A stretch of 64,000 nucleotides of DNA from a virus. The position numbers and the translations under genes were made by a program. Positions 3,653 to 49,385 of this stretch are shown in pieces (the first letter of the stretch is position 1; the number at the start of each line of letters is the position of its first letter). The notes beneath the pieces were generated by a model. It was not told the DNA's origin. It did not search any database and worked only from the letters and a program-made list of their open reading frames with translations. The stretch lies in IMG/VR virus record IMGVR_UViG_3300036861_000995; one strand, written 5' to 3'.

Positions 3653-3743
3653 GGCAAGAGAAGCGAGGCTCCCGCCGGGCGGTTTTCTCGCTCGGCGGGG
3701 CCCCGGTCGCCCCTCCCCCTGGGCGATCTTCTATCCTAGACGA

Positions 3744-19660: not shown

Positions 19661-19668
19661 GGATCAGG

Positions 19669-20676: not shown

Positions 20677-20693
20677 GGTTGTCTCTCCCTGGA

Positions 20694-21071: not shown

Positions 21072-21097
21072 TGTCTCTCCCTCTGGTTAGCGCCCTA

Positions 21098-22512: not shown

Positions 22513-22523
22513 CTCCCCGACGA

Positions 22524-24388: not shown

Positions 24389-24392
24389 AAGA

Positions 24393-24800: not shown

Positions 24801-25958
24801 GATCGTAGACGGACTGCCTGGAGGCGTCGAGGGACGCCGTCCCGAGCCGTCCGGCGAGCAGCGCCGTCGCGAGGCGACGGCCGGCCTCCAGGACGACGAG
24901 GTCGAAGATGGCCTGGGCGTCCGTCCCGAAGAGCACCGCCTCCGGCACGGTAACCTGCCCGGTCGCGACGAAGCGCTCCAGGGCGGCGCCGGACAGCAGG
25001 GCCCTCGGCACGACTAGCCCGCCCTGGGCCCGGAAGATCAGGAGGGCCGACCCCGCCAGAGCCGCCCGGGTCGCTGCCAAGGCTCCCGAGCTCGAGAACC
25101 TCTCGGCCGCGGAGCCGGCCACGATCGCTCCGTCGAAGGCGAGCGCTCCGGAGGCGGAGAACCTCTCGAGCGCGGAACCGGAGAGGACCGCGTCGAAGGA
25201 CGCAGCTCCTGAGGCGGAGAACCTCTCCAGGGCCATCCCCGAGAAGGCCGCGGGCCCGGCGCTGAGACTCCCCGTCGCGGAGAAGCGCTCGAGGGCGACG
25301 GCCGACAGCACGACGACTCCGACCGAGATGCCTCCCGCCCCCGTGATCTGATCTCCGACCGTCGTGGTGGCCTGTCCCGAGAGCGCGGTCGGCGGCTCGG
25401 TGATGGAGCCGCTGGCCAGGAACTTCTCTAGGGCCTGACCGGAGAGGACCGTAGGCGACTGAGAGAGCGATCCCGAGGCGAGGAACCTCTCCAGAGCCTG
25501 ACCGGAGAGGGCCGTCGGCGACTGAGAGAGCGCTCCGCTGGCGAGGAATCTCTCCAGCGCCTGACCAGAGAGCGCGGTCGGCGGCTCGGTGATGGAGCCG
25601 CTGGCCAGGAACTTCTCTAGGGCCTGACCGGAGAGCCCGGTCGCGGCCTGCTGGAGGCCGCCCGAGGCCGCGAATCTCTCCGCCGCCTGGCCGGCGAGCA
25701 GGGCCGGCGACTCCTGGATGGAGCCAGAGGCGGAGAACCTCTCCGCCGCCTGTCCGGCCAGCGCAGCGACTGCCAACTGAGTGGCTCCGGAGGCGGAGAA
25801 CTTCTCCGCGGCGGAACCCGACAGGGCCGCGGGGCGAGCGGTAATCCCGCCGTCGGCGGAGCGGGGCGGCTTCGGGGAGAAGTTCCCCGTGCCCCTCTGA
25901 ACGCCGCGGTTCCGCCTGACCGTCGGCGGTCGGCGGTGGACCCAGGCCCGGAAGAACA
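24784..25958 (-). CDS. tandem-repeat fibrous protein, about 16 units of a 21-aa repeat (consensus SGQALERFLASGSxSxxPTAL)
   Basis: GTG start right after stop of upstream gene with GGAGG RBS; DNA shows near-identical 63-nt tandem units (e.g. copies at 25379 and 25568, 189 nt apart). Confidence 0.6.
25020..25830 (-). repeat. 63-bp (21-codon) in-frame tandem repeat array inside the repeat-protein gene
   Basis: Direct reading: repeated ...gagagcgcggtcggcggctcggtgatggagccgctggccaggaacttctctagggcctgaccggagag... units. Confidence 0.7.
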
Positions 25959-26414
25959 CTACACCTCCGCGAAGGTGACGCGGGCGGTCAGCGTGATGCC
26001 GTCGGCGACGGAGGGGATCCTGAAGGCGATGATGCCTCCAGGGGGCACGTAGATGCGCTCCTCGGGGATCGGCTGGTAGAACCACCCGTTCGCCACGGGA
26101 AAGCTCTCCTCGATCACCTCGGTCACCGTGCCGCCCGCGGTCGTATTACTGACCTCGGCCGTGGCGGACGAGGCCGGGTCGTTGCTGTTGTGCTTGGCGG
26201 GGGTCTGGGACGATCCGTTGGAGCCGGAGGTGGCGTAGCGGCGAATCAAGATCCGCAGGTGCTCCGCGTTGGCGTCTCCAGCGTCAGCCGTGCCGACCTG
26301 CCCGATGAAGGCGGACAGGATCAGGACGCCGGTCGTTGAGCCGGCCGTGATCTCGACCATGTCCTGGGCACCCGAGACGGCGACGTTGGGCTGGGTGACC
26401 GTGTAGACGCGCAT
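25959..26414 (-). CDS. hypothetical protein (151 aa)
   Basis: ORF with codon bias; stop abuts GTG of repeat protein. Confidence 0.45.
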   Translation of the reverse strand: MRVYTVTQPNVAVSGAQDMVEITAGSTTGVLILSAFIGQVGTADAGDANAEHLRILIRRYATSGSNGSSQTPAKHNSNDPASSATAEVSNTTAGGTVTEVIEESFPVANGWFYQPIPEERIYVPPGGIIAFRIPSVADGITLTARVTFAEV

Positions 26415-27752: not shown

Positions 27753-29074
27753 GGCAGCACGGCCGAGTCTGACCAGGACCGCATTGAGGCAGCGTCGGCC
27801 AGATACGACGAGTCCAGGATCCGGTTCACGAGCTCGGAAGGGTCGAGGGCTAGGTCGTAGAGCTCCTCGCGGTCGAAGCTCTTGTCACCGTCGTCGTCCA
27901 GTCGCCGAAGCTTGAGCTGGTGACCGACCGCCGTGGCGCCCGACCGAGCGACGACTCCCACGTCGCCCTCGGGCTCGCCCCACTTGGCCCCGCACAAGAC
28001 CATGTCGTGCGGTGGCGCGTGTGCTAGGCCGTCCAGGATCGGTACCAGCGAGACCGAGGCCGTGGGGAACGGCAGACCCGTCGGGAGCGAGTACCCGCCG
28101 AGCTCGATGATCGTGGACCAGAGGTCTACGGCGTGCACGAGCTCGCCGCTGACGACGCCCTGGAGCACGGGCCCTCCGCAGACGACCAGCGGGACTCGCA
28201 CTCCGCGCTCGAAGGACGTCGCCTTGGCCTTGCCGGGATCTGGAGCGACCTGCGGCGGCGTGCCGTTGTCCCCCACCACGATGACCACGGTCGTCTGCAG
28301 GTCGACGAGGCCGAGCATCGCCGCGAGCATCCGGTCGTAGGCAACGATCATCGCCTCGAAGCGCTGGCGCTGCGTCGTCGGCGGTGGGTAGCCGATCGGC
28401 AGCATGTCAGGCGGCGGGACGTGGAAGGGAGAGTGCGCCAGGTTGCAGCAGACGACTGTGAGGCTCGGCTGCGGCGCCGAGGGGAAGCCGGAGATGAAGG
28501 AGTCGCGGAGCGCCCTGGGCTCGTAGACCAGTGAGCGCACCTCGGCGCACGTCGGCGGAGAGACGCGGCCGGTGACCCGGTCCCAGCTCATGTAGCTGGT
28601 GCCGTTGCACGCCTGGACGTTTCCCCGGATTCCCTGCAAGTGGAACTGGTAGCCGTCCTCGATCGCGGCGCACAGGGCCTGCCCAGTGATGGGCCCGACG
28701 CCGAGGTGCCACTTGCCGAAGATCGCGGACGAGTGGAGCGGCATGGCCTCCGGCAGGAAGACCTCGCTAGCGAGGGGCGTGTTCGGCTCGATCCCGTCCG
28801 AGCATCCCTCTCCGTTGCCCGTGGCCCACCAGTGCCCGGTCTGGATCATCCTCCGCGTGGGAGAGCATGTCGGGGAGGCGTAGGCGTCGTCGAAGCGGAC
28901 TCCAGCGCCAGCGAGCGCCTCGATGTTGGGAGTCGAGACCGGACCGCCGTAGAGGGCCAGGTCGGCCGCCGCCACGTCGTCGAGCACGACGAGGACGACG
29001 GAGAACGCGGGTCCCGGGGACGACCGAGCCACCTCGCCGCGTGCGGCGAGGGCCAGCATCGCGGCGGCGAGCAC
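27749..29074 (-). CDS. secreted formylglycine-type (Cys-type) sulfatase
   Basis: N-terminal signal peptide; metal-binding VVLDD; signature CSPTRRMIQTG (C-x-P-x-R...TG); conserved GKWHLG. Confidence 0.8.
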   Translation of the reverse strand: MLAAAMLALAARGEVARSSPGPAFSVVLVVLDDVAAADLALYGGPVSTPNIEALAGAGVRFDDAYASPTCSPTRRMIQTGHWWATGNGEGCSDGIEPNTPLASEVFLPEAMPLHSSAIFGKWHLGVGPITGQALCAAIEDGYQFHLQGIRGNVQACNGTSYMSWDRVTGRVSPPTCAEVRSLVYEPRALRDSFISGFPSAPQPSLTVVCCNLAHSPFHVPPPDMLPIGYPPPTTQRQRFEAMIVAYDRMLAAMLGLVDLQTTVVIVVGDNGTPPQVAPDPGKAKATSFERGVRVPLVVCGGPVLQGVVSGELVHAVDLWSTIIELGGYSLPTGLPFPTASVSLVPILDGLAHAPPHDMVLCGAKWGEPEGDVGVVARSGATAVGHQLKLRRLDDDGDKSFDREELYDLALDPSELVNRILDSSYLADAASMRSWSDSAVLP

Positions 29075-29077
29075 GGC

Positions 29078-29500
29078 TCAGGACTCCGGGACCGTCACCG
29101 TGAAGGACGTGACCGAGACGATCGCGCCCGACGATATGGCCGTGGAGTTGAAGTTGAGCTCGGAGCCGCTGACGGCACACGCGCCCTGGATCTCGCTCGT
29201 GCCGTCCGACTGAACCATCCGGAAGAACGTCGCCGTGCCGGTGGCGTTGGCCGAGGTGTCGTCCGAGATGGCAGACGCCGTGGCCCGCGCGCCGGGGTTG
29301 AGATCGGCCGCCGCCCCGAAGGCCGGGTCCGACATGGTCAGCTCGGCGAGCAGGGTCTGCGCTCCGAGCGCGGCGTCGGCATCCGCCGGGACTGACCCGG
29401 CGTAGATCCTCAGCAGCGCCGCGCCGGTGCCCAGGTCCAGACGATCGACGATCGCGTCGCAGGCCGCCTTGGCGGCATTGTTCGAGATGAAGCCGGTCAC
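29078..29500 (-). CDS. hypothetical protein (140 aa)
   Basis: ORF with codon bias. Confidence 0.4.
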   Translation of the reverse strand: MTGFISNNAAKAACDAIVDRLDLGTGAALLRIYAGSVPADADAALGAQTLLAELTMSDPAFGAAADLNPGARATASAISDDTSANATGTATFFRMVQSDGTSEIQGACAVSGSELNFNSTAISSGAIVSVTSFTVTVPES

Positions 29501-29736
29501 TTGGAGTCACCGCCCTCCGCGAGGAGAGCCGCGATCTCGGCGGCCCTGGGGTGGTCGGCGGGGATCCGCAGCACGGGGACCGGCCTGGAGGCCGGAAGGG
29601 CGCCCGTCCCGGCGCAGCGGTCGCACTGCGCGGGGCCCTCGTAGGCCGGCGCGTCGCCGTGAGCCTCCGAGCGAGCGATGATCGCCTGGTTACGGCCCGT
29701 GGCCCCGCAGTCGGGGCAGGGAATCTCTCTCCTCAC
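29497..29736 (-). CDS. small CxxC...CxxC zinc-ribbon protein
   Basis: CPDC...CDRC. Confidence 0.4.
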   Translation of the reverse strand: MRREIPCPDCGATGRNQAIIARSEAHGDAPAYEGPAQCDRCAGTGALPASRPVPVLRIPADHPRAAEIAALLAEGGDSK

Positions 29737-29962
29737 GTAGTCTCTCCTCCTCGTCGATCCTGGCTCTCGCCTCCGCGTACCCCGGGTCGCCCGGGTTCAG
29801 CACGCAGACTGTACCACTCACGCGCACCTCCGGGCAGTGCACGTCTCCCTGGACCAGGCCGAGGCCCGCGCACACGTCGCAGGCGCGAACCGTCTGGGTT
29901 CCAAGGATCACGTCGATGTCGCGAACGCGACCAGAGCCACGGCAGGCGGGGCAGCTCCTCAC
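29690..29962 (-). CDS. small zinc-ribbon protein
   Basis: CPAC...CDVC...C. Confidence 0.35.
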   Translation of the reverse strand: MRSCPACRGSGRVRDIDVILGTQTVRACDVCAGLGLVQGDVHCPEVRVSGTVCVLNPGDPGYAEARARIDEEERLREERDSLPRLRGHGP

Positions 29963-30164
29963 GTCGGCACGTCCTCCGCCCCGGGGTAGGAGGCGAGGCG
30001 CCGAAGCGTCTCCTCAGTGAGGTGCTCGCGGTCGACCACGAGGAGACGCTCGGCTCGATGCCGGTAGCTTCGCGGGAACGCGGTAGCCACCACGGCGCCA
30101 GACAGCTCCTCGCGGCTGGAGCGCAGGGCGCAGGCCTGCTCGAACGTTGGCGCGAGTATGAGGA

Positions 30165-31589
30165 TCATTCTTGGGGTCCTTGAATTGGTGATGGCTCCGG
30201 ACGGAGCGAGGGCGCCCCGGCCACCGCCTGCTCGGCGGCGAGCTCGGGGTCCGGGATCGTGATAGGGTCCTGAAGGCCCAGGATCTGGCGCACGTCGTGC
30301 ACCGCCGGGTCGTCCGGCATGATCGTGGCTCCGGCGCGAGCGAGTCGCTCGAGGGCGGCCGTGACCTCCTCGACGTCGCGGAACTCGAGCCGATCGGTCT
30401 TGATTCTCGGTCGAGACTCGTCCGGCCAGCCGTTCAGGCGCCAGATCGGCCCGATCACGTCCTTCTCGAACTGCTGGCGCATCTCCTGCAGGGCCGAGTC
30501 GATGACGATCGCGAAGTTGCGCGACTTGTCCTTGCTCATCGCGAAGGAGCCGACGCCGTTGTCGCCGAGCAGGAGCTGCTCGATGCCGAGCACGCGCGCG
30601 ATCTCGCGATTGACGCGCTCGATCGCGCGAAGGACCTCGGGCTGGCTGGTCGCCTCGGCCCGCAGCAGGTCCACGTCCCACTTGCGCTCGGAGGAGGGCC
30701 GCCGCGTCTCGAGGTCCTCGTAGGTGACCGAGTCCAGCAGGAGGCCGAGCGCCGGGTTGCGCACGTGCCCCTGGAGGAACTTGCGCAGGCCGGAAAGGGC
30801 CTCATCAGCCTGCGCGTCGTTGATCTCGCCTGACTTGACCAGCTCCTGCAGCTTCGCGAGCGGGGCCCGTCCTACCGGGATGCCGCGCAGGTCGGTCTCG
30901 AACCCCCAGCCCTCGAGCTGCTCGTAGCGCTTGAGCCTGCGCACGGACTCGACGATGTGCCGGAAGAGTCCCGCGCCCTCGGGCGAGTCCGAGATCGAGT
31001 CGTCGACGAGGTAGACGAGCTTCCAGCGCGGGAGGTAGATGTCGAGGCCGGTGCTCGGGGAGCGCTGAACGACGCCGAAGACCTCGCCGTGCTCGCCCAC
31101 GTCCCACTGCTCGATCGTCGACTGCGGGCGAGCGGCGATGTTCCTGACGCCCACGGCGCCGTCCGGCCGGCGGTAGGCCGTCCACTCCTGCACGCTGAAC
31201 CCGTGGAACCTGTACAGGGCCGCGCGTCGCACGACCTTCTGCCAGGGCGTGCTCATGTCCGGCGAGTGGAGCATGTCCGTCGCCCGCTCGGCCAGAAGAT
31301 CCGCCCCGGCGACGCCCTCGGGCGGCTCGAGCCGCCACTCCGGGCGGCTGACGAGGTTCAGGAAGTACCGCACGCCGGCCGCCACGATCGATACGTTCGC
31401 CAGCGCGTTCGCGTACGTGCGGTACTTGTTCGACCCGACGAGCTCGCTGCTCGACTCGTTGTCCTGGATGTAGCCGCCGAGGACGGCGGTCCCCGAGACG
31501 CCCGTCTCCGCGAGCGGAAAGCTGCGCGGCTCGCCCCGTATCGAGGGCGGCACCCGAGAGATGTCGGGCGTCGACGGTATCTGGGGCAT
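30165..31589 (-). CDS. portal protein (474 aa)
   Basis: Size and position downstream of terminase large subunit; call is by synteny. Confidence 0.6.
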   Translation of the reverse strand: MPQIPSTPDISRVPPSIRGEPRSFPLAETGVSGTAVLGGYIQDNESSSELVGSNKYRTYANALANVSIVAAGVRYFLNLVSRPEWRLEPPEGVAGADLLAERATDMLHSPDMSTPWQKVVRRAALYRFHGFSVQEWTAYRRPDGAVGVRNIAARPQSTIEQWDVGEHGEVFGVVQRSPSTGLDIYLPRWKLVYLVDDSISDSPEGAGLFRHIVESVRRLKRYEQLEGWGFETDLRGIPVGRAPLAKLQELVKSGEINDAQADEALSGLRKFLQGHVRNPALGLLLDSVTYEDLETRRPSSERKWDVDLLRAEATSQPEVLRAIERVNREIARVLGIEQLLLGDNGVGSFAMSKDKSRNFAIVIDSALQEMRQQFEKDVIGPIWRLNGWPDESRPRIKTDRLEFRDVEEVTAALERLARAGATIMPDDPAVHDVRQILGLQDPITIPDPELAAEQAVAGAPSLRPEPSPIQGPQE

Positions 31590-31597
31590 CTAAGGCC

Positions 31598-32119
31598 CTA
31601 CGACTTCTCGGACGCCGCCTCTGACTCGGGGCTCGAGTGACGAGCGCCGAGGCCCTTGAGCAGGTCTCCGGCGGCGACCAGGATCTGCCCCCTGGAGATG
31701 CTCCTGACGGCGCTCCCGTAGTGGCGACGCACGCGGCGAGACCCGGCCACCTTGAGCAGCTCCACGGCCACGGCCCCGAGGCCGTAGGGAAGAAGCCCGT
31801 TGAGCGGCTGAGCGCGGCCCTCGATGACCTTCGACTCGACCTGCGCGAGCTGGGCCTCCGCGTCGCTCAGGCGCCGGCCGGCCTCCTCCTGAAGCCCGGC
31901 GGCCTCCTGGTCGTCCTCGTCGCCGGGAGTCAGAGTGGCCTCCTCGGCCAGAGCCTGGGCCGCTCCCAGGTCCCTCTCGGCCTGCTCCGCGGCCTGCTGG
32001 GCGGCGTCGAAGGCCTGGAGCAGGTCGGGGCGCTCCTCGCGAACGTCGTCGCGGACTATCGAGCACGCGACGAGGGCCAGGAGGAGAGGGAGAGCGAGCG
32101 CGACGAGGGGGATCTTCAT
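31598..32119 (-). CDS. lipoprotein (lipobox LVAC) with coiled-coil region, inserted between terminase and portal
   Basis: MKIPLVALALPLLLALVAC signal/lipobox; ATG 11 nt after TerL stop. Confidence 0.55.
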   Translation of the reverse strand: MKIPLVALALPLLLALVACSIVRDDVREERPDLLQAFDAAQQAAEQAERDLGAAQALAEEATLTPGDEDDQEAAGLQEEAGRRLSDAEAQLAQVESKVIEGRAQPLNGLLPYGLGAVAVELLKVAGSRRVRRHYGSAVRSISRGQILVAAGDLLKGLGARHSSPESEAASEKS

Positions 32120-34985: not shown

Positions 34986-35005
34986 AGTCCCAAGACTGGG
35001 ACTCA
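34986..35005. promoter_or_regulatory. perfect palindrome GAGTCCCA-AGAC-TGGGACTC (8-4-8), candidate operator upstream of gene starting 34937
   Basis: Read directly from the sequence. Confidence 0.4.
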
Positions 35006-35049
35006 CAGAATGCACCCTCACCGATGGGGGGTCAGGGGTCGTGCTTCCA

Positions 35050-35704
35050 GCGAAACATGGCATCCTTTATATGGGACTGTAGGCGGTGCGGTAGGCGGGG
35101 GTGGTAGGGGGGTGGGCATGGGCGGGTAGAATGGGGATACCTGGGCCTGTAATATTTACCTTCTTCTAATAGTAATAAGAGGTGATACTGGTGATAGGGG
35201 TTCAGGACCTTATCTGACAAGGACTTGCGACGACACCACCATTCACCGACGTCACAGAAAAACGAAACGAGAAGCGTAATCGAATTGTAAAAAAATGTGA
35301 AAAGTGGCAATTGTGCAACGACCTGGACCACGCAAGGCCCGCCGGGGGTGTTCGATCTCTAGGAAAATCCTTCCAGTTCGGAAGCCTTTTCTCACTCGAG
35401 ACCAAAGGAGTTACGTCGCTCGGAAATCCTAAGGACGGCTCATTGGCATGGTATTTGAGTATGCCGCTTGCGTTACCATCCGCTCGGATGGTAACAGGCC
35501 TGGGACTAGCGCCGTGGCCGATCTTCGCCCCTTGCGATGCTGACGGCTCATGTCGTGCCAGGCCTTGGGAAGGAATGCTAGTCCGGCCCGATGTTTCGCG
35601 ATGAGTGACTCCTAGGGCAGGGCGAGGCCTCCATGGGCAGGGGGGAGGGGGTACTTCCCCCTCTCTTCCTCGCTGGCATCGACCCATCTCCAACTTCCGT
35701 TGCA
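35050..35704 (-). ncRNA. candidate large structured noncoding RNA in a ~1 kb low-GC island, transcribed from the CCGATATTAG motif at 35704-35717
   Basis: ~55% GC versus ~69% elsewhere; no GC3 bias in any frame; multiple perfect hairpins (e.g. 35472-35495 gttaccatcc/ggatggtaac); upstream promoter motif shared with four genes; flanked by terminator (36001-36043) and next gene's operator. Confidence 0.25.
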
Positions 35705-35717
35705 TTCCACTAATATC
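35704..35717 (-). promoter_or_regulatory. conserved motif copy 1 (minus strand CCGATATTAGTGGAATG)
   Basis: Member of 5-copy family CCGATAT(A/T)AG. Confidence 0.4.
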
Positions 35718-36000
35718 GGCCTTAGCGATACCGCCAAGGCCGATTTCGCCCGAGGAGCCGTAATGGGGGATTGGGGCCTATTGACGTTCTCTCCTTCCCT
35801 ATAGGCTCACTGCCAGGCTACTAGTAGCGGAGAGGGTACTGGGTCAGGAACAATCACCAATGGCGACTCCTCGAAATGGAGGAGAGAGACGCCAACTAGC
35901 ATTACCGAGCCCCGTTTTCCCTCCGTTTCCTCGCACTAGCCCCTGGTACACCACGGGCCCCCACTACCCCACAACGCTCGCCCTAGGCTCGCCAGACGAC

Positions 36001-39871: not shown

Positions 39872-40280
39872 CCGCTACCTGGGCGGGTCGGGGGAAAATG
39901 GAGGATTCGCCCCGGGAAGAAGAAATCGGGACGCCCGGCCGGCGGCAGGAGTCGTGCCGTGGGGAGGCCGGGCGCCCGATCGCTCGCGGAGTGCGTCTTC
40001 CTAGGGGTCCCTCCGCGAACACCCCCAGACTACCCCGACCTGTCGTCGGAGGGGGCCGAATCCGCGATCCCCCACCGAAGGGCCGAGCGCCCTCGTTCCC
40101 TTCTCGAGCGCCGGCGCCAGGCCATCCCGCGATTGCAGAGGCGTGCTAGGGCCCCACGAGCTCGCCAGCTCGAGAGGCCGGAGGCTCGCCGGATCCACGC
40201 CAGAGCCACCCCAGAGGGCCCCGCGACCTCGAGGACGGAGAGTATTGCGTCCTCGTCAGCCCTGGCTCGAGCCCCAATCC

Positions 40281-40425
40281 CTATTCGGCATTCGGCACCC
40301 TCGGCCCCAGAATCTCCATTCGGCATTCGGCACCCTACGGTCGTAGGGGCGCAACGCTACCACGAATCAGCATTCGGCACTCGAGCAATACCTTAGTAAC
40401 TAGCATTTCGATCTACATTCGGCAC
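40281..40425. repeat. direct-repeat (iteron/operator) array: CATTCGGCAC x4 positions, two as 20-bp doublets (ATTCGGCATTCGGCACCCT)
   Basis: Copies at ~40283, 40317, 40371, 40416 in the divergent intergenic region upstream of the rightward operon. Confidence 0.6.
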
Positions 40426-40519
40426 CCGTGGCACGACGAAGCACAGCGTCGCACGCTGGACGGTGATTGTGCCGTCCGGCGTAAGATGAAAACTTTTACC
40501 TTAGATTGGAGCCAACCGA

Positions 40520-40717
40520 ATGAAGAATCGAATCAACGAGGACCAGGACCGAGAGCCCAGCATCCGCCGGGACCACTACGATGCCCTCGAGGACGAGGTG
40601 GCGAGCATCATGGGAGAGCTCGGGGTCGCGCCGAAGCCGCCGCTGCCCAGGCGGGACCGCCAGCGCATCAGGGGCTTCATCGTGATCTTCGATCACGAGA
40701 AGAAGGAGGCAGCCTGA
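40520..40717 (+). CDS. small charged protein (65 aa), first gene of rightward operon
   Basis: GGAG RBS 8 nt upstream; stop overlaps next ATG (TGATG). Confidence 0.45.
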   Translation: MKNRINEDQDREPSIRRDHYDALEDEVASIMGELGVAPKPPLPRRDRQRIRGFIVIFDHEKKEAA

Positions 40718-41502
40718 TGAGCCCCTACCACTGGCTGGCGGTGCTCGCCGCTCTCTCCCCCTGCTGCTCGACCTCGTCGAAGCTGCGGGCGTCTGCCGGG
40801 ATTCCCGGCGTCGCCTCGATCGACTACGAGGGCAGCTCGAGCGGGTCGGGCGCGGGGGGCGACGGAGAGGTCTGTTACCTCCTGACGTTCTTCGACGAGG
40901 ACGGGGACCAGATCGGCCCCCCGATCATGGGTGGAGACCTACCGATCGGCGCCCCGGTACCGAAGGGATCCAAGTCCGTGACCGTGACGGAGGTGCCCTG
41001 CCCCGACAAGGAGAAGCCGAGCCCGGACGATCGGGAGCAGCTCGTAGTCTCTCCGATACGACTAGCGCTGATCGCGCCGGCGGCGGAGCTCGACGGGTTT
41101 CGCGATCGCTTCGCCGCGATCTCGGCGCCCGAGGCGGAGCTCGGACGCGTGACCGAGGAGCTCCGGAAGGGCTGGATGTACCTTCCTCCCCCGAGCGGGG
41201 CGGAGGTGCACTACGCCTTCTTCGTCTCGGCGGTCTCGGACGGTCTCCTGATCGTGCTCGGGAGCGACGAGCGCATGGAGAGGCTGGACCTCCTTTTCAA
41301 CGGTCACCGGCACGTGCTGCGGCAGCAGTTCCACGGCGGCGGCTGGTACAGGACGCTGGTCCTCGTCCCGTGGAGCGAGGTCGACCGGACCCTCAGGGCC
41401 GGCCGCAACGACCTCAGCTTCACGCTCGACACCGAGGAGGAGCAGGGCCTGCGGTTCGAGGGCTCGTACGAGTGGCCGGCACCGGGGCCGATGAACGACT
41501 GA
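40717..41502 (+). CDS. secreted/membrane-anchored protein (261 aa); candidate superinfection-exclusion or lysogenic-conversion protein
   Basis: AAGGAGG RBS; N-terminal signal-like hydrophobic segment with Cys pair; followed by strong terminator. Confidence 0.55.
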   Translation: MSPYHWLAVLAALSPCCSTSSKLRASAGIPGVASIDYEGSSSGSGAGGDGEVCYLLTFFDEDGDQIGPPIMGGDLPIGAPVPKGSKSVTVTEVPCPDKEKPSPDDREQLVVSPIRLALIAPAAELDGFRDRFAAISAPEAELGRVTEELRKGWMYLPPPSGAEVHYAFFVSAVSDGLLIVLGSDERMERLDLLFNGHRHVLRQQFHGGGWYRTLVLVPWSEVDRTLRAGRNDLSFTLDTEEEQGLRFEGSYEWPAPGPMND

Positions 41503-41524
41503 CAGGGTGGCGACTCGGCCCCCA

Positions 41525-41558
41525 GGACCCCCGCCCGCGCGGGGGTCCTTCTTTTTTT
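41525..41558 (+). terminator. rho-independent terminator (GGACCCCCGC-CCGC-GCGGGGGTCC then TTCTTTTTTT)
   Basis: Read directly. Confidence 0.8.
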
Positions 41559-41598
41559 GGCTAAAGCATCTGCCTCCGTCGTCCGACGATGGAGACTG

Positions 41599-41784
41599 AT
41601 GAGACCCCTACTCCGAGCCCGAGAGGCCGCCGTGCTCCTGTCGATCTCGCCGCGAAAGCTCTGGGAGCTCACCAATCGAGGAGTCATACCCTCGATCCGC
41701 ATAGGACGGTCCCTGCGCTACCGGCACGAGGACCTCCGCGCGTGGGCAGAGCGCCAGGCCAGCGAGAGGAGGAAGACGGGCTAG
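41599..41784 (+). CDS. xis: excisionase / AlpA-like HTH protein
   Basis: LLSISPRKLWELTNRGVIPSIRIGRSLRYRHEDLRAWAE is classic Xis/HTH_17; adjacent to integrase. Confidence 0.65.
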   Translation: MRPLLRAREAAVLLSISPRKLWELTNRGVIPSIRIGRSLRYRHEDLRAWAERQASERRKTG

Positions 41785-42116
41785 ACCCTCAGCGAGTACC
41801 GCGTCCCCCGGCGTTCTCCGGTTCTCCGGATCTTCTTGTCGCTCCGCAACCTGTTGAGAGTTGGACGGAGGATGTCGGGGGTCGCGCCTAGAGCCTCTCC
41901 GATCTCGCTCGCCGCCACGCCGTCCGGGCGAGTCTGCAGGAAGGCGATGATCGACTCCTCCGACGGGGCCGACTCGGCCCGTCGCGGAGAGCGAGAGCCG
42001 CTCTCGAACGACAGCATCCCCCTGAGCTCCTCCACTATGCTGCGCCTGACGGCGAGCGAGAGCTTGCCGGCGAACTGAGTGATCTCGTGCTGGATGTAGT
42101 CGTCTAATTTGTTCAT
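41781..42116 (-). CDS. winged-helix transcriptional regulator (111 aa), candidate repressor
   Basis: GGAGAAAAC RBS; C-terminal wHTH-like segment; between xis and int. Confidence 0.55.
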   Translation of the reverse strand: MNKLDDYIQHEITQFAGKLSLAVRRSIVEELRGMLSFESGSRSPRRAESAPSEESIIAFLQTRPDGVAASEIGEALGATPDILRPTLNRLRSDKKIRRTGERRGTRYSLRV

Positions 42117-42169
42117 TCGGTGTTTTCTCCTTAGCCCTCGTGAGGCTTACGGCGATACCCTACCTGTCC

Positions 42170-43264
42170 ATGGCGTGGCTCTTCAAGCGGGACTCTAGGG
42201 GCCCCTACCTGGTGCGCTGGTACGACGAGCTCGGCCGAGTCAAGGAGCGCTCGTCGAGAACCACCGACCGAAGGGCGGCCGAGCGGATCGCAGCCCAGAT
42301 TCAGGCGAACGTCTCGCTGAGGCGCGAGGGCGTCGTCGATCCCGCCCTCGCTATGGTCGCGGAGGAGTCTCAGCGGCCCCTTCAGGAGCACGTCGACGAA
42401 TACCTCGCCCACCTCGAGCGCGGCCGGCGCTCGCCGCGAACGATCGCGGACGCGCGCCAGCACCTCGCGTGGCTCAGGGCGAGTACCCGTGCCACGCGCC
42501 TCTCCGACCTCACCCTCGACAAGGTGGAGCGTGCCCTGGGCCTTCTTCAGGCGGAGAACCTCTCCGCCAGGACGTTCAACCACAAGGCCGGATCGGCCAG
42601 GTCTTTCCTCAACTGGGCGGTCAAGGCCGGCCGACTCGAGCGAAACCCGCTTCGGCACCTGCCGCACCTCTCTGAGTCCCAGGACCGTCGCCGCGAGCGC
42701 CGACCGCTCGACGACGACGAGCTGGAGCGCCTCTTCGAAGTCGCTCGGGCCAGGGGCCGGGAACTCTGGTACGCCCTGGCCTACTGGGCCGGCCTCCGAC
42801 TCTCGGAGTTGAGGCGCCTCGCGTGGGAGGACCTAGACCTGGCGAGGGGAGTCCTGGTGGTGAGTCAGGGCAAGGCGCGGAGGGTGGATGAGGTTCCGGT
42901 CCACCCAGAGTTGGTCAGACTTCTAGAGGAGAGAGGCCGCGCCTTGCGGGGACCAGTCTTCCGGACGGCCGTCACCAATGCAACCAGAGTGAGGGATTTC
43001 CGCGCGGCCGGAATCGGAGTCAGGGACGGCCGCGTGGCCGACCTCCACTCCCTCCGAGTCACCCTGGCGACGAACCTGGCCCGCGCCGGCGTTCAGCCCC
43101 AGGTCGCCCAGCGCCTCCTGCGCCACTCCGACTACCGGACCACGGTCCGCTTCTACACCAAGCTCTCCTCCACGGATACTCGCGGGGCTCTCTCCCAGTT
43201 GCGAGTTCCTCACGCTAGACGACACCTACGGGAGCACGGTTCGGCGCGAGATGCTACATCCTAA
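42170..43264 (+). CDS. int: tyrosine recombinase / phage integrase
   Basis: N-terminus MAWLFKRDSRGPYLVRW; C-terminal catalytic HS-LRHT...Y region (LLRHSDYRTTVRFY); immediately followed by tRNA-derived sequence. Confidence 0.9.
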   Translation: MAWLFKRDSRGPYLVRWYDELGRVKERSSRTTDRRAAERIAAQIQANVSLRREGVVDPALAMVAEESQRPLQEHVDEYLAHLERGRRSPRTIADARQHLAWLRASTRATRLSDLTLDKVERALGLLQAENLSARTFNHKAGSARSFLNWAVKAGRLERNPLRHLPHLSESQDRRRERRPLDDDELERLFEVARARGRELWYALAYWAGLRLSELRRLAWEDLDLARGVLVVSQGKARRVDEVPVHPELVRLLEERGRALRGPVFRTAVTNATRVRDFRAAGIGVRDGRVADLHSLRVTLATNLARAGVQPQVAQRLLRHSDYRTTVRFYTKLSSTDTRGALSQLRVPHARRHLREHGSARDATS

Positions 43265-43307
43265 TGCGACGTAGGATGCGCTCTCGGCCCCGAGCGGGCC
43301 GAAAAGG

Positions 43308-43356
43308 TGGAGGCGGCAGTGGGATTCGAACCCACGATAGCGGATTTGCAATCCGC
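43308..43356 (-). tRNA. partial tRNA-Cys(GCA): anticodon stem-loop, variable loop, T-arm, acceptor 3' strand and CCA only; probable attP/att core
   Basis: Minus strand reads GCGGA-TTGCAAA-TCCGC TATC GTGGG-TTCGAAT-CCCAC TGCCGCC T CCA; no matching 5' acceptor strand or D-arm upstream. Confidence 0.55.
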
Positions 43357-43471
43357 GACCTCAGCGACGCAACTCCCATTCTGTAAACGACTTACGAAGC
43401 GACTCTATTCGATCCCCACGCCTAACGACATCTACTTGAAGCATCGCTCCTCATCGAATAGCACAGTCGGC

Positions 43472-43738
43472 GTGAGCGACCTCCCCTACCAGGTGCGCGG
43501 CTGGCATCCCAGCCTGGCCTCTCCGCCTCGCTCCGAGCTGTCCTTCCTGCGCGACTACGCGACGCTCGCCGGCGCGACCCGGAAGTTCGAGTCGCTCAGG
43601 GACGCGGGCCTCGCGGCGGCCGTCCTCGAGCGTCGAAGCGAGGACGGACTCGTGAAGCTCGTCGTGGTCCTCTCGTGGCACCCGGCCGAGCTGATGGCGC
43701 AGAAGCTCGGCCGCTTCCTTCGGGGACTGGGACGTTGA
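43472..43738 (+). CDS. small hypothetical protein (~88 aa) translationally coupled to helicase-methyltransferase
   Basis: GTG start; TTGA stop/start overlap with next gene. Confidence 0.3.
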   Translation: MSDLPYQVRGWHPSLASPPRSELSFLRDYATLAGATRKFESLRDAGLAAAVLERRSEDGLVKLVVVLSWHPAELMAQKLGRFLRGLGR

Positions 43739-45966
43739 GCGACTACGGAGCCTTCCTCTCCTCCAAGTCTCGGGAGGTCGAGCCCCATGGTCCGGAGCCG
43801 GGCTCAGTGCACCCCTCGCTCTTCCCGTTCCAGGCCGACCTGACCCGGGGCGCGATTCGTCGCGGTCGCGCCGCGGTGATGGCCGACACGGGCCTCGGGA
43901 AGACGAGAATCCAGGTCGAGTGGTCGCGCCTCGTGACCTCGGAGCGCGCGCTGATCCTGTGCCCGCTCGCTGTGGCTCGCCAGACCGCGCGCGAGGCGGC
44001 CCTCCTGGGCGTCGGCGCCACGGTCGCTCGAGACCGGGCGGAGGCCCTTCGCGGAGAGCGCCTGACGATCTCAACCTACGAGCGGCTCGCGAGGCTGGAC
44101 CCCGGCGACTACGACGCCGTCGCTCTCGACGAGTCGCAGATACTCAAGGCCTTCGGCGGAAGCACTCGTCGCGCCCTCATCGACGCCTTCGTCGGCACCC
44201 GCTACCGCCTCGCCTGCAGCGCGACGCCGGCCCCCAACGACGTTCTGGAGCTCGGGGGACACTCCGAGTTCCTCGGGGTGCTCCCCCACCGCTTGACGGT
44301 CGCCCGCTGGTTCGTGCCGGACAAGGCCCGCACCGGGAACCACCGCCTGAAGGGACACGCCGAGGCCGACTTCTGGTCCTGGGTCGCCTCCTGGGCTGCC
44401 GCTTGTCGCCGCCCCTCCGACATCGACCCCTCGTACGACGACTCCCCCTTCGAGCTGCCGGCCCTCGAGTGGTGGCACCACCCCCTTGGCCCCGAGCGCC
44501 CCTCCCCCTCGGCGACGCGCCTGTGGGCGGAGAAGCGCCTGACCCTGGCCGAGCGCTGCGAGCGCGCCGCCGAGATCGTCGCCTCGAGGCCGCGCCGTCC
44601 GTGGGTCGTCTGGTGCGACTCGAACGAGGAGAGTCGCCTGCTCGCGCGCCTCGTTCCGGGGGCCGTCGAGGTGCGCGGCGACATGCCGACGGAGTCGAAG
44701 GAGGAGCGGCTCCTCGCGTTCACGGACGGCGAGGCGCGGGCCATCGTCACCAAGGCGTCGATCGCCGGCCTCGGTCTCAACTGGCAGCACTGCTCGGACT
44801 TCGTCCTGGTCGGCCTGAACTACAGCTTCGAGCGCATGTACCAGCTCGCGCGGCGCCTCTGGCGCTTCGGCCAGTCCCGGACCGTCCGCGGGCACCTGGT
44901 CGTGGCCGGCGCAGAGCGCGGGGTCGTGGAGGCCCTCGAGCGGAAGAGGGAGGAGCACGAGCGCACGGCGGAGGAGATGGTGCTGGCTACTCGCCGCAGT
45001 CGAGTCCCGTCGTCCCCCGTCGAGCTGCCCGCGGCGTCGTCGGAGGTCGCCGAGGGTCCCGGCTGGCGGCTCCTGCTGGGCGACTCGGTGGAGGCTCTGC
45101 GGCAGGTCGAGGCAGGCTCGGTGGACCTCTCGATCTACTCGCCCCCGTTCGCTAACCTCTACGCCTACTCGGACGACCGGAGGGACATGGGGAACTCCGA
45201 GGGGCGAGAGCAGTTCCTCGAGCACTACCGCTTCCTGCTGCCGGAGCTGCTGCGCGTCACCCGTCCCGGGCGCCTGTGCGCCGTGCACTGCCGCGACCTG
45301 CCGCTCTACGCCCACCGCGACGGCCGGGCGGGGCTCTACGATTTTCCGGGCGCGCTGGTCCGTGAGCACGAGTCCGCGGGCTGGACGTTTCACTCCCGGA
45401 TCACGATTCGCAAGGATCCGAAGACCGAGGCCGTGCGAACGTGGAACCATGGCCTCCTCCACAAGAACTTCGCCGCGCGCGCCGAGGTCTGTCGCCAGGC
45501 TACGCCCGACCAGGTCCTTGTCTTCCGACTCTGGGCGAGGGACCAGGAGGGAGAGCATGTGCGCCACGACCTGGGTCAGCGATCCATCGAGGTCTGGCGC
45601 CGCTACGCCGAGCCGATCTGGACGGACATCGACGCCACCGACGTCCTTCCCTATCTCGGCGCCCGCGAGAAGCGCGACGAGCGCCACATAGCTCCGCTGC
45701 AGCTCGGAGTGGTTGAGCGCTGCGTCGAACTCTGGTCGAATCCGGGAGAGCTGGTCTTGTCACCGTTCGCCGGCGTTGGCAGCGAGCTCGTGGTTTCGAT
45801 TCGGCTCGCCAGAAGGGCCCTCGGCATCGAGCTCAAGCGATCGTACTGGGAGCAAGCGATCAGGAACCTCAGTTCAGGCACGGCGTCTCGCCGCGCACGT
45901 AGACGATCCGGTACTCCGCGCACGGCCGCGTCCGGTAGACGTGGAGCCGCAGGACGCTGCTCTTGA
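43736..45966 (+). CDS. fused SF2 helicase / DNA N6-adenine or N4-cytosine methyltransferase (~743 aa)
   Basis: N-terminal helicase motifs (ADTGLGKT, DESQ, SAT); C-terminal MTase motif IV SPPF and AdoMet-binding region (FAGVGSE). Confidence 0.8.
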
Positions 45967-46051
45967 ACTGCTCGGAGTACAGGACGACCCAGCCGCTGAG
46001 GCACGAGAGCGATTCGGCGCACCAGCAGTCACCGAGCGAATCCCAGTACAC

Positions 46052-46261
46052 CTACGGCCTCCTCAGGATGAGCAGCACCGATCGGTCGCCAAGCCTCTCG
46101 ACGGACACCACTTCCTGCCGAGTCGGTCGTCCGTAGGGTCGCGGCGACTCCGGGGTCGGCGCTGAATCCTCCCGGCGGCAGCCGAACGCGAGGAACGCGA
46201 GCACCAGCGTCGCCAGGCAGAGCAGGACGAGCGAGGTGAGGGATCGTAAGCGATTGTTCAT
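46052..46261 (-). CDS. small secreted/lipoprotein-like peptide (69 aa) coupled to serine recombinase (ATGA overlap)
   Basis: Hand translation MNNRLRSLTSLVLLCLATLVLAFLAFGC... Confidence 0.35.
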   Translation of the reverse strand: MNNRLRSLTSLVLLCLATLVLAFLAFGCRREDSAPTPESPRPYGRPTRQEVVSVERLGDRSVLLILRRP

Positions 46262-46887
46262 GCGGCCCTCCGGACCATCGAGCGCACGACCTTGGCCGAC
46301 CACCGGGCCCCGGTGACGGTGGCGTGTCCCTCGTCCGACAGCCGGGCGGCGATCGCGCGCAGCGACAGGCCCTGACCTCTCAGCTCCGCTGCGCGCGCGG
46401 CGGCGACAGGCGAGGAGGTCTCTCGGTAGGAGACGCGCAGGCCCCGCCGCGCCATGTGTCGCAGGACCTCGCTCGTGCGCTCCGCGATCTGGTCGCGCTC
46501 GAACTCGTCCAGAGCCGCGCGGAATCGGAAGAACAGTTTGCCGGTTGCGGTCGAGGTGTCGATCTTCTCGTTCAGCACGACGAGGTCGCAGCCGTCCGCC
46601 TCGAGCCGCGCGGCGAGATCGAGCATCCCTCTGGTGGAGCGCGCCACCCGGGACAGGGAGTAGGCCACCAGGGCCCCGCCCCTGCCGCACAGGGCCAGGG
46701 CTCGCGTCAGGCCTGGGCGGTCCATCCTGGTGCCCGTGCTCTCGTCGGGCTCGACCACGAGCTCCCGGCCGTCCCCGTGCAGCTCGTGCCAGGCCCGGAT
46801 CTTAGCCTCCTGGGCCTCCAGCGACATCCCGTCCCTGGCCATCTCCTCCTTGGAGACTCTCACATACCCGACGACTGTCTTCACCAT
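46258..46887 (-). CDS. serine recombinase (resolvase/invertase family, ~209 aa)
   Basis: N-terminal catalytic VVGYVRVSKEEMARDGMSLEAQ; C-terminal HTH; start at internal ATG MVKTVVGY. Confidence 0.8.
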   Translation of the reverse strand: MVKTVVGYVRVSKEEMARDGMSLEAQEAKIRAWHELHGDGRELVVEPDESTGTRMDRPGLTRALALCGRGGALVAYSLSRVARSTRGMLDLAARLEADGCDLVVLNEKIDTSTATGKLFFRFRAALDEFERDQIAERTSEVLRHMARRGLRVSYRETSSPVAAARAAELRGQGLSLRAIAARLSDEGHATVTGARWSAKVVRSMVRRAA

Positions 46888-46965
46888 GACGAACTCTATC
46901 GACCAGTCGAGGGCTCGGACTGCACCATCCTCCATATTCCCACGACGAGGAGGACCGACGGTAGG

Positions 46966-47373
46966 ATGGCTACCGTGAGGGGGGTGTTCCTGCTGCTGGC
47001 GGCCCTGGCCGCCTCCTGCGCCGCGTACCCGCGCCACGACCCTCCCCTTGCGGAGCCACCTCTACAGGACCTCCCGAGCCCCGGCCTGGACGTCGAGATT
47101 CGCGTGGCGGATCTCGATCCGCAGGGACTGCTCGGTCAGTCCGAGCTCATCGACGGAAGATTCGTCATCACCCTGGACGACGACCTGTCGCCCGAGATGC
47201 GCACCGAGGTCCTAGTGCACGAGTGGGCGCACCTCCTGGTGTGGGGAGCCAGCGACCAGTTCGGCGATCACGGCCCGACCTGGGGCGTCGCCTACGCTTG
47301 GGTCTACAGGTGCGTCGTCGATCCGGATCCAGGGCGCGGCGGCAGCGGCGAGTCCGAGGGAGAGAGCGAGTAG
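46966..47373 (+). CDS. small lipoprotein/secreted protein with HExxH zinc-metallopeptidase motif (HEWAH)
   Basis: Signal peptide MATVRGVFLLLAALAASC; GAGGAGGA RBS; divergent from recombinase. Confidence 0.5.
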   Translation: MATVRGVFLLLAALAASCAAYPRHDPPLAEPPLQDLPSPGLDVEIRVADLDPQGLLGQSELIDGRFVITLDDDLSPEMRTEVLVHEWAHLLVWGASDQFGDHGPTWGVAYAWVYRCVVDPDPGRGGSGESEGESE

Positions 47374-47543
47374 TGCGCGGCGAAGCGCTCAAATAGCTCC
47401 TCGCCCTCGGGACCTAGGCTGATCGCCGCCTCTCGTGCTTGTCGGCAGCTCTCCCTTCCCCGTCGGTAGGCACCCGGATCGTCCGACATGGCGTAGTACC
47501 AGTCGAGCGTCATCAGGTGATCGTACAGCTCGACCAGGGTCAT
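47304..47543 (-). CDS. hypothetical small protein (79 aa)
   Basis: ORF with codon bias. Confidence 0.3.
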   Translation of the reverse strand: MTLVELYDHLMTLDWYYAMSDDPGAYRRGRESCRQAREAAISLGPEGEELFERFAAHYSLSPSDSPLPPRPGSGSTTHL

Positions 47544-47773
47544 CCGTTGCTCCTGCGCCTTTGATTGATCTCGTCCTGCGTCAAGAGCGCCGCGCGAGTC
47601 GCCTCTCGCGAGGAGAGAAGAGTCTGCGTCAGCGCCAGGGCTTCTAAGCGCTCGAGGCCGTTGGAGACCAGCGACTTGAACACGGCCGCGTAGAAGCCGA
47701 CCACCTGGTCGCAGTACGCGGCCTGGGCCTGGTCGTTCTGCGCCGCGAGGCGCGCGATGTCGTCGGGCGTCAT
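47540..47773 (-). CDS. hypothetical small protein (77 aa)
   Basis: ORF with codon bias, stop/start overlap with neighbours. Confidence 0.35.
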   Translation of the reverse strand: MTPDDIARLAAQNDQAQAAYCDQVVGFYAAVFKSLVSNGLERLEALALTQTLLSSREATRAALLTQDEINQRRRSNG

Positions 47774-48075
47774 GGTCCTACCTCCGCGTACTCATCCTGA
47801 TCGTCTGCGCCGGCCAGCATGATCCTCACCCAGCCCTCGGCTCGTCCCGGGGTGACCCAAGGAAGGTATAAATGTACCTCGGCCACCCTCTCGGTGCAGA
47901 AGTCCCCTCGGATCTGCACGTAGTCGCCCACCCTGGGAACCACGTGCCACGCCCCGCGCCAGACGCACTTTGCGTCCGGCGAGCCCAGCTCGCGTCGTAT
48001 CCAGAACTCGAGGAGCACCGCACTCAATCCCCCCGCGCAGCGCGTGCCTTGGGCAGAGTCCTCGACAGGTCGCAC
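47770..48075 (-). CDS. hypothetical protein (101 aa)
   Basis: ORF with codon bias. Confidence 0.35.
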   Translation of the reverse strand: MRPVEDSAQGTRCAGGLSAVLLEFWIRRELGSPDAKCVWRGAWHVVPRVGDYVQIRGDFCTERVAEVHLYLPWVTPGRAEGWVRIMLAGADDQDEYAEVGP

Positions 48076-49385
48076 GACTCGAGTAGTCCGAACACGTCGA
48101 CCCGCGGGTCGGTCGGCTGCTGGCTAGTCGCGGCGGAGTACCAGCACAGCAGGTCTACTCCCGACGCCTCGGCCGTCCTGCGGATGCCTCGGTAGAGCTC
48201 TCCCATCCACTCCGTTCGCTGCGCGTCGATCGCCGCTCGGCGCCAGGGGTGGGAGCCGGCTATGAGCGACTGCCCGGCCTCGTAGCATGCGAAGTAGGGC
48301 ACGTCGTAGGCTTGGCGGATCTCGTCGTGGCGCTTCAGCGGGCCACCGTTCTCTCCGATGTCCTCCAGACGAGCGAGGCAGCTTGAGCGTAGCTCGTCCT
48401 GCGTCGGAATGGCCCCAGTGGCCTCCCACTCCTCCTTGTGGGCCTTCAGGGGAGTCACGTAGAGCGCCGGGCCGGCGAGGTCGGGGGTAATTCCGCGAAC
48501 CTGGAGAGCAGAGAGTATTCGGTCCAGGTGGGACGGCACAGCCAGTTGACCGCCGACGAACAGGTAGTAGTTCTTCTGCCCCAGAAGGTCCGGCTCGCCG
48601 AAGACTCGGTCGGCGACGCGCTTCATCATCGTGATCTCGTCCGCGGCGCGGTCATACCAGGTATAGCCCGAGATTGAGTAGCCGTCTCGCAGCCAGCGTT
48701 GGACCGGGAACGCAGAGTTCCAGAGCTCGTTCCCGTACTCTAGGATCGGAGGTCGGCTCAGCATCCCGTCGATCGACCGCAGTAGCTCCTCGAGTCGGCG
48801 CTCGTACTCCTCCGCGGGTAGATCGTAGCGAGGGGGCGCGTTCCACCAGAGCGAGCACTGGAGGATCCTCGCAGCGTGGGCTTGCATTGTGGCGGCCATT
48901 CCTCGGTCTCCGCCCTGCAGCGCGTCGCTGGAATTCACGCTGCTCGCGGACCAGTCAGTCTTTCGATTTACCATCGACCAGTCGAGCGTGCGCAGGACTC
49001 TGGGTCGAAAGTAGGCCAGAGCCTCCACGGACGGTCGATGCCACCAGCCTGTACTCTCGGACCGAGGATAGAGGCCGCGAGGCCTCTCGATCCCGCGCCA
49101 GTACAGGTAGTAGGCCTCGCCCTGGCGCATCCGTACCGACCCCCCGTAGCCGGACGCGATCTCGAGGTCCGGCATGGTGCCCTCCATGTCGCCGAACACC
49201 CGGACGCCGTTCCAGCGACCGTCGTCGACGGGCCAGCCGTCCGCGCCGAGCGTGGAGGGCTCGCCTGTCGGGGTGCCGTCTTCTCGGAAGACCTCGAACA
49301 TCCTCCCGCGCCTCACCGGGTTCGCGAAGAGGGGAAGTCTCGAGGTCCAGCCGCAGAAGGACGGGTTCAGGCCGTAGTGCGTCAT
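48024..49385 (-). CDS. putative TIM-barrel glycoside hydrolase (clan GH-A-like, ~453 aa)
   Basis: Start MTHYGLNPSF; candidate acid/base motif YGNELWN and later CYEAGQ; Trp/Tyr-rich. Confidence 0.4.
   Translation of the reverse strand: MTHYGLNPSFCGWTSRLPLFANPVRRGRMFEVFREDGTPTGEPSTLGADGWPVDDGRWNGVRVFGDMEGTMPDLEIASGYGGSVRMRQGEAYYLYWRGIERPRGLYPRSESTGWWHRPSVEALAYFRPRVLRTLDWSMVNRKTDWSASSVNSSDALQGGDRGMAATMQAHAARILQCSLWWNAPPRYDLPAEEYERRLEELLRSIDGMLSRPPILEYGNELWNSAFPVQRWLRDGYSISGYTWYDRAADEITMMKRVADRVFGEPDLLGQKNYYLFVGGQLAVPSHLDRILSALQVRGITPDLAGPALYVTPLKAHKEEWEATGAIPTQDELRSSCLARLEDIGENGGPLKRHDEIRQAYDVPYFACYEAGQSLIAGSHPWRRAAIDAQRTEWMGELYRGIRRTAEASGVDLLCWYSAATSQQPTDPRVDVFGLLESCDLSRTLPKARAARGD

Follow-up and report, generated by a model that had tools for sequence, protein, structure and literature searches.

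The 49 nucleotides at positions 43308-43356 of the window (by which is meant the whole 64-kb stretch of viral DNA analysed here) are, with a probability of about 0.85, the attP of a temperate siphovirus, probably one of high-GC Planctomycetota, with the 3'-terminal 49 nt of the tRNA-Cys(GCA) gene of its host as the core. An attP taken from the 3' end of a tRNA gene is the ordinary means by which a temperate phage inserts into a chromosome without destroying the tRNA gene of its host. The preliminary description of this DNA had already proposed an attP for integration into the 3' end of tRNA-Cys, a reading that is borne out by an integrase gene lying 43 bp away, a true 3' fragment of the tRNA gene, relatives of the integrase found in the integrated state and phage DNA on both sides of the fragment. 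The window represents 64 kb of a 72,929-bp contig, of which ~8.9 kb, contig ends included, lies outside the sequence examined.

Direct reading of the minus strand from 43356 to 43308 gives GCGGA-TTGCAAA-TCCGC-TATC-GTGGG-TTCGAAT-CCCAC-TGCCGCC-T-CCA, in exact agreement with the stem-loop with anticodon GCA, variable loop, T arm, acceptor 3' strand and CCA that had been announced for this place (Table 1). A variable loop of 4 nt is typical of tRNA-Cys. The 49-mer occurs a single time in the 64-kb window, and none of 100 shuffles contained a match. No 12-mer of the segment 43200-43700 recurs suggestively in the window, and neither a second att copy nor terminal repeats were found in its 64 kb.

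The extent of the homology was established by comparison with authentic tRNA-Cys genes sharing the T arm and acceptor of the core. The 3' part of the core is identical at 44 of 46 positions to the intact tRNA-Cys genes of L029 and L071, and 46 matching positions are also found between the core and the 3' parts (47 and 48 nt) of the tRNA-Cys genes of L053 and L012. These two genes share the G27-C43 pair with the core, the only difference being one or two additional bases in the variable loop. On the other side of the boundary, the 25-27 nt upstream of the core agree with a real tRNA-Cys 5' half (GGCGGCAUAGCCAAG...) in no more than 4-7 positions; among random window 40-mers, 79% give an alignment to this half that is equally good or better. 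The 5' acceptor strand GGCGGCA expected from the tRNA-Cys of this clade is not present beside the core. Because the 5' neighbour of the core shows chance similarity, homology to the host tRNA-Cys ends at position 27/28, that is, at the 5' edge of the anticodon stem.

Table 1. Features in and around the attP, with the PaMx11 positions to which window genes correspond (positions refer to the window unless marked otherwise).
Feature	Position	Strand	Details
HTH_17 (excisionase/AlpA-type) gene	41632-41784	+	50 aa; upstream of int; Pfam PF12728, E 7.4e-11
Tyrosine integrase gene (int)	42140-43264	+	374 aa as longest ORF; PF00589 E 3e-20, PF02899, phrog_1 E 7.5e-47
Direct repeat CACGCNNRACGACAYCTAC, int-proximal copy	43211-43229	+	19 nt; inside int 3' end
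attP core	43308-43356	-	3' 49 nt of tRNA-Cys(GCA), position 27 to CCA, without 5' half
CCA	43310-43308	-	
Discriminator U73	43311	-	
Acceptor 3' strand	43318-43312	-	
T arm	43335-43319	-	perfect
Variable loop	43339-43336	-	4 nt
Anticodon stem	43356-43352 / 43344-43340	-	perfect
Anticodon loop TTGCAAA	43345-43351	-	between inverted 5-bp stem halves GCGGA/TCCGC
9-bp inverted repeat CTATTCGAT ... ATCGAATAG	43405-43413 and 43453-43461		encloses distal direct-repeat copy
Direct repeat CACGCNNRACGACAYCTAC, distal copy	43417-43435	+	19 nt
88-aa ORF	43472-43738	+	first gene beyond attP; called at equivalent position in L001 and L002
Helicase-DNA methyltransferase (N6/N4) fusion	43876-45966	+	PF01555, PF00271; phrog_16, phrog_62, phrog_67
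Small serine recombinase	46258-47037	-	up to 259 aa, 209 aa as called in L082; Resolvase domain
Window tail genes	PaMx11 18961-25036		
Window helicase	PaMx11 28695-30233		
Two genes after window helicase (gp40, gp41 homologues)	PaMx11 30849-32089		
DNA polymerase (window right side)	PaMx11 43391-45304		
Primase (window right side)	PaMx11 46550-48895		

A tRNA search, one of the checks suggested in the preliminary description, for which an intact tRNA with a non-canonical D arm would have counted as a refutation, gave a divided outcome. ARAGORN does report a tRNA-Cys of 67 nt at 43308-43374, its sole tRNA-like call in the 64 kb, with the anticodon at position 26 instead of ~34, but the Rfam tRNA model (RF00005) assigns this span 26.0 bits against a gathering score of 29. 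According to the same model, the 67-nt call contains the non-pairs A1-C72 and U4-C69 in its acceptor stem, together with a D stem of 2 bp and a D loop of 4 nt. An intact, non-canonical tRNA-Cys with a reduced D arm could appeal to the ARAGORN call itself and to an acceptor in which 5 of 7 positions are pairable once two G-U pairs are counted. It is nevertheless ruled out, to the point of being barely conceivable, by the Rfam score, the mispaired acceptor, the 2-bp D stem, a 5' part resembling no tRNA-Cys of the matching clade beyond chance, and the lack of any ARAGORN call at the fragment in the ~96%-related contigs L001 and L002, whose putative 5' strand differs. The earlier statement that neither a 5' acceptor strand nor a D arm accompanies the fragment consequently holds, given the chance-level similarity of the upstream 25-27 nt and the sub-threshold Rfam score.

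Phages often carry tRNA genes, and the fragment might alternatively be a decayed, phage-encoded tRNA-Cys pseudogene that has lost its 5' half for reasons unrelated to integration, a view with which the truncated ARAGORN call and a degenerate second T-arm-like stretch at 43406-43421 would be compatible. Decay of this kind is nonetheless very improbable, considering that the 49 nt are structurally perfect while the adjoining 27 nt are at chance similarity, the break falling exactly at the edge of the anticodon stem. With respect to int, the fragment also has the position, strand and spacing of intact tRNA-Cys genes beside homologous integrases. Moreover, the fragment is kept in the ~96% relatives L001 and L002 with one change only (C43 to T, compatible with the stem as a G-U pair), while the nearby intergenic DNA farther along is more divergent.

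A third possibility is that a separate tRNA-like RNA is expressed from the fragment, in place of an attP function or in addition to it, for instance as a decoy for a host nuclease directed at tRNA anticodon loops. Nothing direct speaks for it; the fragment does retain a perfect anticodon arm and T arm, and a CCA is encoded in the phage copy and missing from the best-matching host genes. Such a role seems highly implausible, as no promoter-like site was found in 41500-44000, and an attP accounts for all the features and for the geometry shared with integrated relatives.

The degenerate variable-loop/T-arm copy at 43406-43421 lies on the minus strand (CGTGGGGATCGAATAG, compared with CGTGGGTTCGAATCC in the real one) and shares bases with the left arm of the inverted repeat of 9 bp; it could be the relic of an older att core or a mimic that binds the integrase. 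The hexamer TCGAAT is also locally frequent, with 3 of its 16 occurrences in the window falling within 136 bp (43324-43459).

The attP reading of the fragment finds its counterpart in the adjacent gene, which encodes an intact tyrosine integrase. The active-site residues R220, K245, R306, H329 and Y339 are invariant in an alignment of 7 homologues, and the window protein has the LHSLR motif. A near-identical relative has been called from a Met at ~42170 (364 aa). The protein matches XerC/XerD/Int structures and is ~30% identical to Gordonia phage integrases, being only distantly related to characterised integrases. The int gene stops 43 bp before the CCA end of the fragment; the two are encoded on opposite strands and are thus convergent. 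A terminator hairpin in this interval was considered and rejected, the scan reporting no terminator between int and the CCA end. The HTH_17 gene upstream of int encodes a candidate recombination directionality factor (Xis), and HTH_17 genes occupy a similar place upstream of homologous integrases in L001, L003, L005, L008, L078 and L080.

Metagenomes commonly contain homologues of the integrase with 55-61% identity, several of which carry the name Planctomycetes in their source records. The integrated state is best illustrated by a 188-kb contig (L005), in which a homologue of 55% identity (P0024) ends at a distance of 81 bp from an intact tRNA-Cys(GCA); the tRNA is on the other strand, its 3' end faces int, and host genes for citrate synthase, peptidase M17 and ETF-QO follow beyond it. 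The same layout beside an intact tRNA-Cys is seen for P0007 (57%; L080/L081), host synteny after int is again the same in the contig of P0004 (59%), and P0009 (56%; L003) presents the same arrangement at a tRNA-Arg(UCU). This is the layout expected of the integrated counterpart of the window, in which the 3' part borne by the element would lie beside int, fused to the 5' half of the host gene. The attR direct repeats of the integrated relatives L005, L080 and L003 were not found within the flanks examined, and the sublocation of the crossover is for this reason a predicted one.

Two further truncated tRNA sequences were encountered. On a contig with a T7-type RNA polymerase and a 56% integrase homologue (L008), ARAGORN calls a 69-nt tRNA-Arg(acg) at 3682-3750 on the minus strand with the anticodon at position 28, which may be another truncated-tRNA attP. 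In the MAG CSMAG_1063 (L070), an isolated tRNA-Cys 3' fragment starting from the anticodon loop (TTGCAAATCCGTTATCC GTGGG...) lies at ~835-879 on the plus strand with no ARAGORN call, and is probably an att site of another element.

In the window, the identity block starts at the anticodon stem, which we take to be the anticodon-loop sublocation class, of which phages P22, HP1 and mycobacteriophage L5 are examples. This class is said to be class I among the sublocation classes of tRNA-integrating elements distinguished by Williams in Nucleic Acids Res in 2002. The likeness to an attP of this class comprises a tyrosine integrase gene beside a phage-borne tRNA 3' part that runs from the 5' side of the anticodon stem to the 3' end, a tRNA convergent with int, and its regeneration on integration, with which the homology boundary and the relatives described here fit. 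The differences are that the crossover and the arm-type sites are predicted in the present case, that the integrase is a distant one, and that the target is a tRNA-Cys of Planctomycetota type.

In the mechanism that we propose, integrase monomers would bind the inverted anticodon-stem halves GCGGA/TCCGC both in attP and in the chromosomal tRNA-Cys (attB), and strand exchange would take place across the 7-nt anticodon loop TTGCAAA, the predicted overlap segment with core-type Int sites. The host copy of positions ~27-76 would give way to that of the phage, which would be joined to the host 5' half, an intact tRNA-Cys remaining beside int, and the displaced host 3' part would mark the far end of the prophage, next to the helicase-methyltransferase. 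Assembly of the intasome and control of the direction of the reaction would fall to the flanking repeats together with the HTH_17 protein. Recombination of attP with attB by this integrase is a prediction made from sequence.

Among the repeats that flank the core, the 19-nt direct repeat CACGCNNRACGACAYCTAC has only two matches in the 64 kb even when 2 mismatches are allowed; both flank the core and both are conserved in L001. The two copies are candidate arm-type sites for the integrase, the one inside the 3' end of int representing the putative P'-arm site and the distal one the putative P-arm site. The preliminary description had instead pointed to a 9-bp inverted repeat near ~43408 and ~43455, which is indeed present at nearly these positions (Table 1). 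When the 207-bp intergenic region is shuffled by dinucleotides, 3.5% of the shuffles contain a perfect inverted repeat of at least 9 bp, making this one marginally non-random. Both of its arms are located on one side of the core; in L001 and L002 they persist as a repeat of 8 bp, where the spacer diverges. Its role as an arm-type site is putative, and we consider the 19-nt direct repeat the better candidate.

The genes on either side of the attP have the order of a single phage. On the int side, small genes are followed by terminase, portal, head and tail genes, with an SNF2-type helicase at the left end of the window. On the far side, domain and PHROG searches retrieved the helicase-methyltransferase, serine recombinase and replication genes as first described, the serine recombinase being followed by metallophosphoesterase, primase and DNA polymerase. 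Host chromosomal genes immediately beyond the core would have spoken against an attP in phage DNA; both flanks carry phage genes. GC content is uniform at ~0.65-0.72 across the window (~68% for the phage).

The gene order was compared by tblastn of the window proteins against the first 50 kb of the 59.9-kb record of Pseudomonas phage PaMx11. As in the siphoviruses of the PaMx11/Ab18 type (Mesyanzhinovviridae), the tail genes, helicase, gp40/gp41 homologues, DNA polymerase and primase are collinear, with 23-47% amino acid identity, and the DNA polymerase and primase are ~46-47% identical to those of Pseudomonas siphoviruses of this type; the terminase has its closer relatives in Shewanella and Rhizobium phages. 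On the PaMx11 map, the left end of the window (helicase, gp40/gp41 homologues) leads into its right end (DNA polymerase, primase). The window is, by this collinearity, a circular permutation of a single PaMx11-type map, broken between the gp41-like gene and the polymerase and not at the att site. Between its early genes and the terminase, the window has an int/attP cassette; in the PaMx11 stretch compared, no tblastn match to the window integrase and no annotated integrase or tRNA were found.

The integrase and the helicase-methyltransferase are recorded together on one 72,929-bp JGI metagenome contig, and the int-fragment-helicase junction recurs in three further contigs, identically in L082 (run SRR11742962) and at ~96% in L001 (JGI 3300036859) and L002 (SRR11829739). 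The protein clusters at least 90% identical to the integrase comprise only two others, both in the attP state. No contig joining the integrase of this phage to host DNA was found, and a megablast search of 40000-47000 against GenBank phages returned no match. The phage flanks and the presence of the same junction in other samples indicate the attP of a phage that is not integrated at this site. With the site unrecombined, the evidence supports a phage genome that is free, replicating or circularly permuted, and speaks against a prophage end. This is also what had been suggested at the outset, and the permuted PaMx11-type map, broken away from the att site, and the 72,929-bp metagenome contig agree with it.

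The internal junction of two tandem elements at a chromosomal tRNA-Cys, that is, the int of one element, the tRNA 3' fragment and the far end of a second element, would produce locally the same picture of int, fragment and foreign DNA. Members of the integrase clade are indeed found in small islands at tRNA-Cys, and 8.9 kb of the contig lie outside the sequence examined. However, the 64 kb contain no second fragment, no intact tRNA-Cys and no second tyrosine integrase; replication genes occur only on the right and structural genes on the left, adding up to the PaMx11 order; the GC content is uniform; and the same junction is present in three further contigs, with none showing a host junction. 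We therefore think it most unlikely that two elements meet here, and retain the attP of a single phage genome.

Some features of the surrounding DNA deserve mention in their own right. The 88-aa ORF beyond attP gave no match in a Pfam search. The helicase-methyltransferase is called by its source as a 719-aa protein starting at ~43807, and a protein 100% identical to it (P0121) is the one recorded on the 72,929-bp JGI contig. It is a DEAD/Helicase_C, SNF2-like protein with >5,700 homologues at E<=1e-30. One of 50% identity (P0174) is recorded on a JGI contig of 15,673 bp. The T7-like phage contig underlying L078, on which a 60% integrase homologue is encoded, has the same length; if the two contigs are one, int and the helicase-methyltransferase may constitute a shared module.

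The small serine recombinase, 3 kb away from attP, could function as an invertase or resolvase. Large serine integrases are ~450-600 aa in length and have recombinase and zinc-ribbon domains. The window protein was rejected as an integrase, being too small and of resolvase/invertase size; it has only a 43-residue piece of PF07508, below the family cut-off, and its best PHROGs are invertase and integrase N-terminal.

Elsewhere in the window, the interval 35001-36000, just upstream of the terminase module, has a GC content of 0.565 compared with ~0.68 elsewhere; it might have a regulatory or packaging function, or have been acquired recently as an insert. In the head-gene region, tandem repeats of ~63 nt (5-8 copies, 60-90% identity) at 25068-25829, inside an ORF on the minus strand (24784-26085), imply a repetitive 21-aa protein motif. 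Upstream of the plus-strand cassette that contains int, a 26-nt direct repeat, AATCYCYATTCGGCATTCGGCACCCT, is found at 40276-40301 and 40311-40336 (92% identity, 35-nt spacing) and could be an operator or an iteron-like site.

The identity of the host was approached through the tRNA sequence carried in the attP, the preliminary description having proposed a comparison of the 49-nt core with candidate host genomes. An exact attB was not obtained, the 49-mer having no match in 185,579 species genomes, IMG/VR or JGI metagenomes, but searches with a 25-mer and with a degenerate 45-mer did lead to intact tRNA-Cys genes. The 25 nt formed by the T arm, acceptor and U73 are found exactly in 62 of the 185,579 species genomes, ~55 of which are labelled Planctomycetota, Phycisphaerae, Planctomycetaceae, Pirellulales or similar; Sedimentisphaerales are represented too, as are a few Chloroflexota. 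The 45-mer of the L001 variant (positions 28-73) recurs without mismatch (45/45) in 8 intact tRNA-Cys genes, that of L029 and those of 7 metagenome contigs. L029, a Planctomycetaceae MAG, has a GC content of 71% at this locus, as compared with 68% for the phage. On these sequence grounds, the phage probably has its host among the high-GC Planctomycetota.

The best-matching host tRNA-Cys genes (L071-L077 and L029) have A27/U43 and do not encode CCA, in contrast to the phage copy, which has G27, C43 and CCA; it follows that the exact host tRNA is still unsampled. It is expected to have G27-C43, possibly with an encoded CCA, and was not among the genomes searched; a fully matching host tRNA-Cys would carry GCGGATTGCAAATCCGCTATCGTGGG.... 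Whether the window may be regarded as the near-complete genome of a temperate, ~73-kb PaMx11-like siphovirus of an uncultured high-GC Planctomycetota lineage, its host pinned by the tRNA-Cys attP, is in our estimation a matter of roughly even odds.

Two other groups of elements resemble the phage of the window in its use of tRNA genes. Pelagiphages reportedly integrate into tRNA genes, tRNA-Cys included, according to a bioRxiv study. They share with the window phage an attP core derived from the host tRNA-Cys, which has been used likewise to infer lysogeny and host. They are, however, low-GC podoviruses of SAR11 (Alphaproteobacteria) with unrelated integrase and tRNA sequences, whereas the window represents a siphovirus-like genome of 68% GC. 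Closer in their integrases (55-57% identical, 59% for P0004) are the small islands L003, L005 and L080/L081 on metagenome-assembled bacterial contigs, composed of HTH_17, DUF3987 or Prim-Pol, and int. As in the window, HTH_17 lies upstream of int, and the tRNA 3' end of the islands faces the int stop at a distance of 36-82 bp. Unlike the element of the window, which is a full phage in the unintegrated state, these islands at tRNA-Cys or tRNA-Arg are integrated, measure 5-8 kb and have no virion genes, an intact tRNA and host genes lying beyond.

In summary, the attP marks the phage as temperate and the assembled DNA as unintegrated. The feature is of an ordinary, well-understood kind, and the mechanism is textbook, nothing new being learned about integration itself. 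The attP core provides, nevertheless, a host assignment at the sequence level to the Planctomycetota, apparently to Phycisphaerae- or Planctomycetaceae-like MAGs. Few phage-host links exist for Planctomycetota to our knowledge, and the added value of the present one is only modest. If the window is indeed the near-complete genome of such a Planctomycetota phage, lysogeny would rewrite the 3' two-thirds of the host tRNA-Cys and could add an encoded CCA or alter the 27-43 pair, and integration into a tRNA-Cys gene lacking CCA would turn it into a CCA-encoding gene. The integrase clade recurrently targets tRNA-Cys and tRNA-Arg in these bacteria, which could help to delimit prophages and islands in their MAGs.
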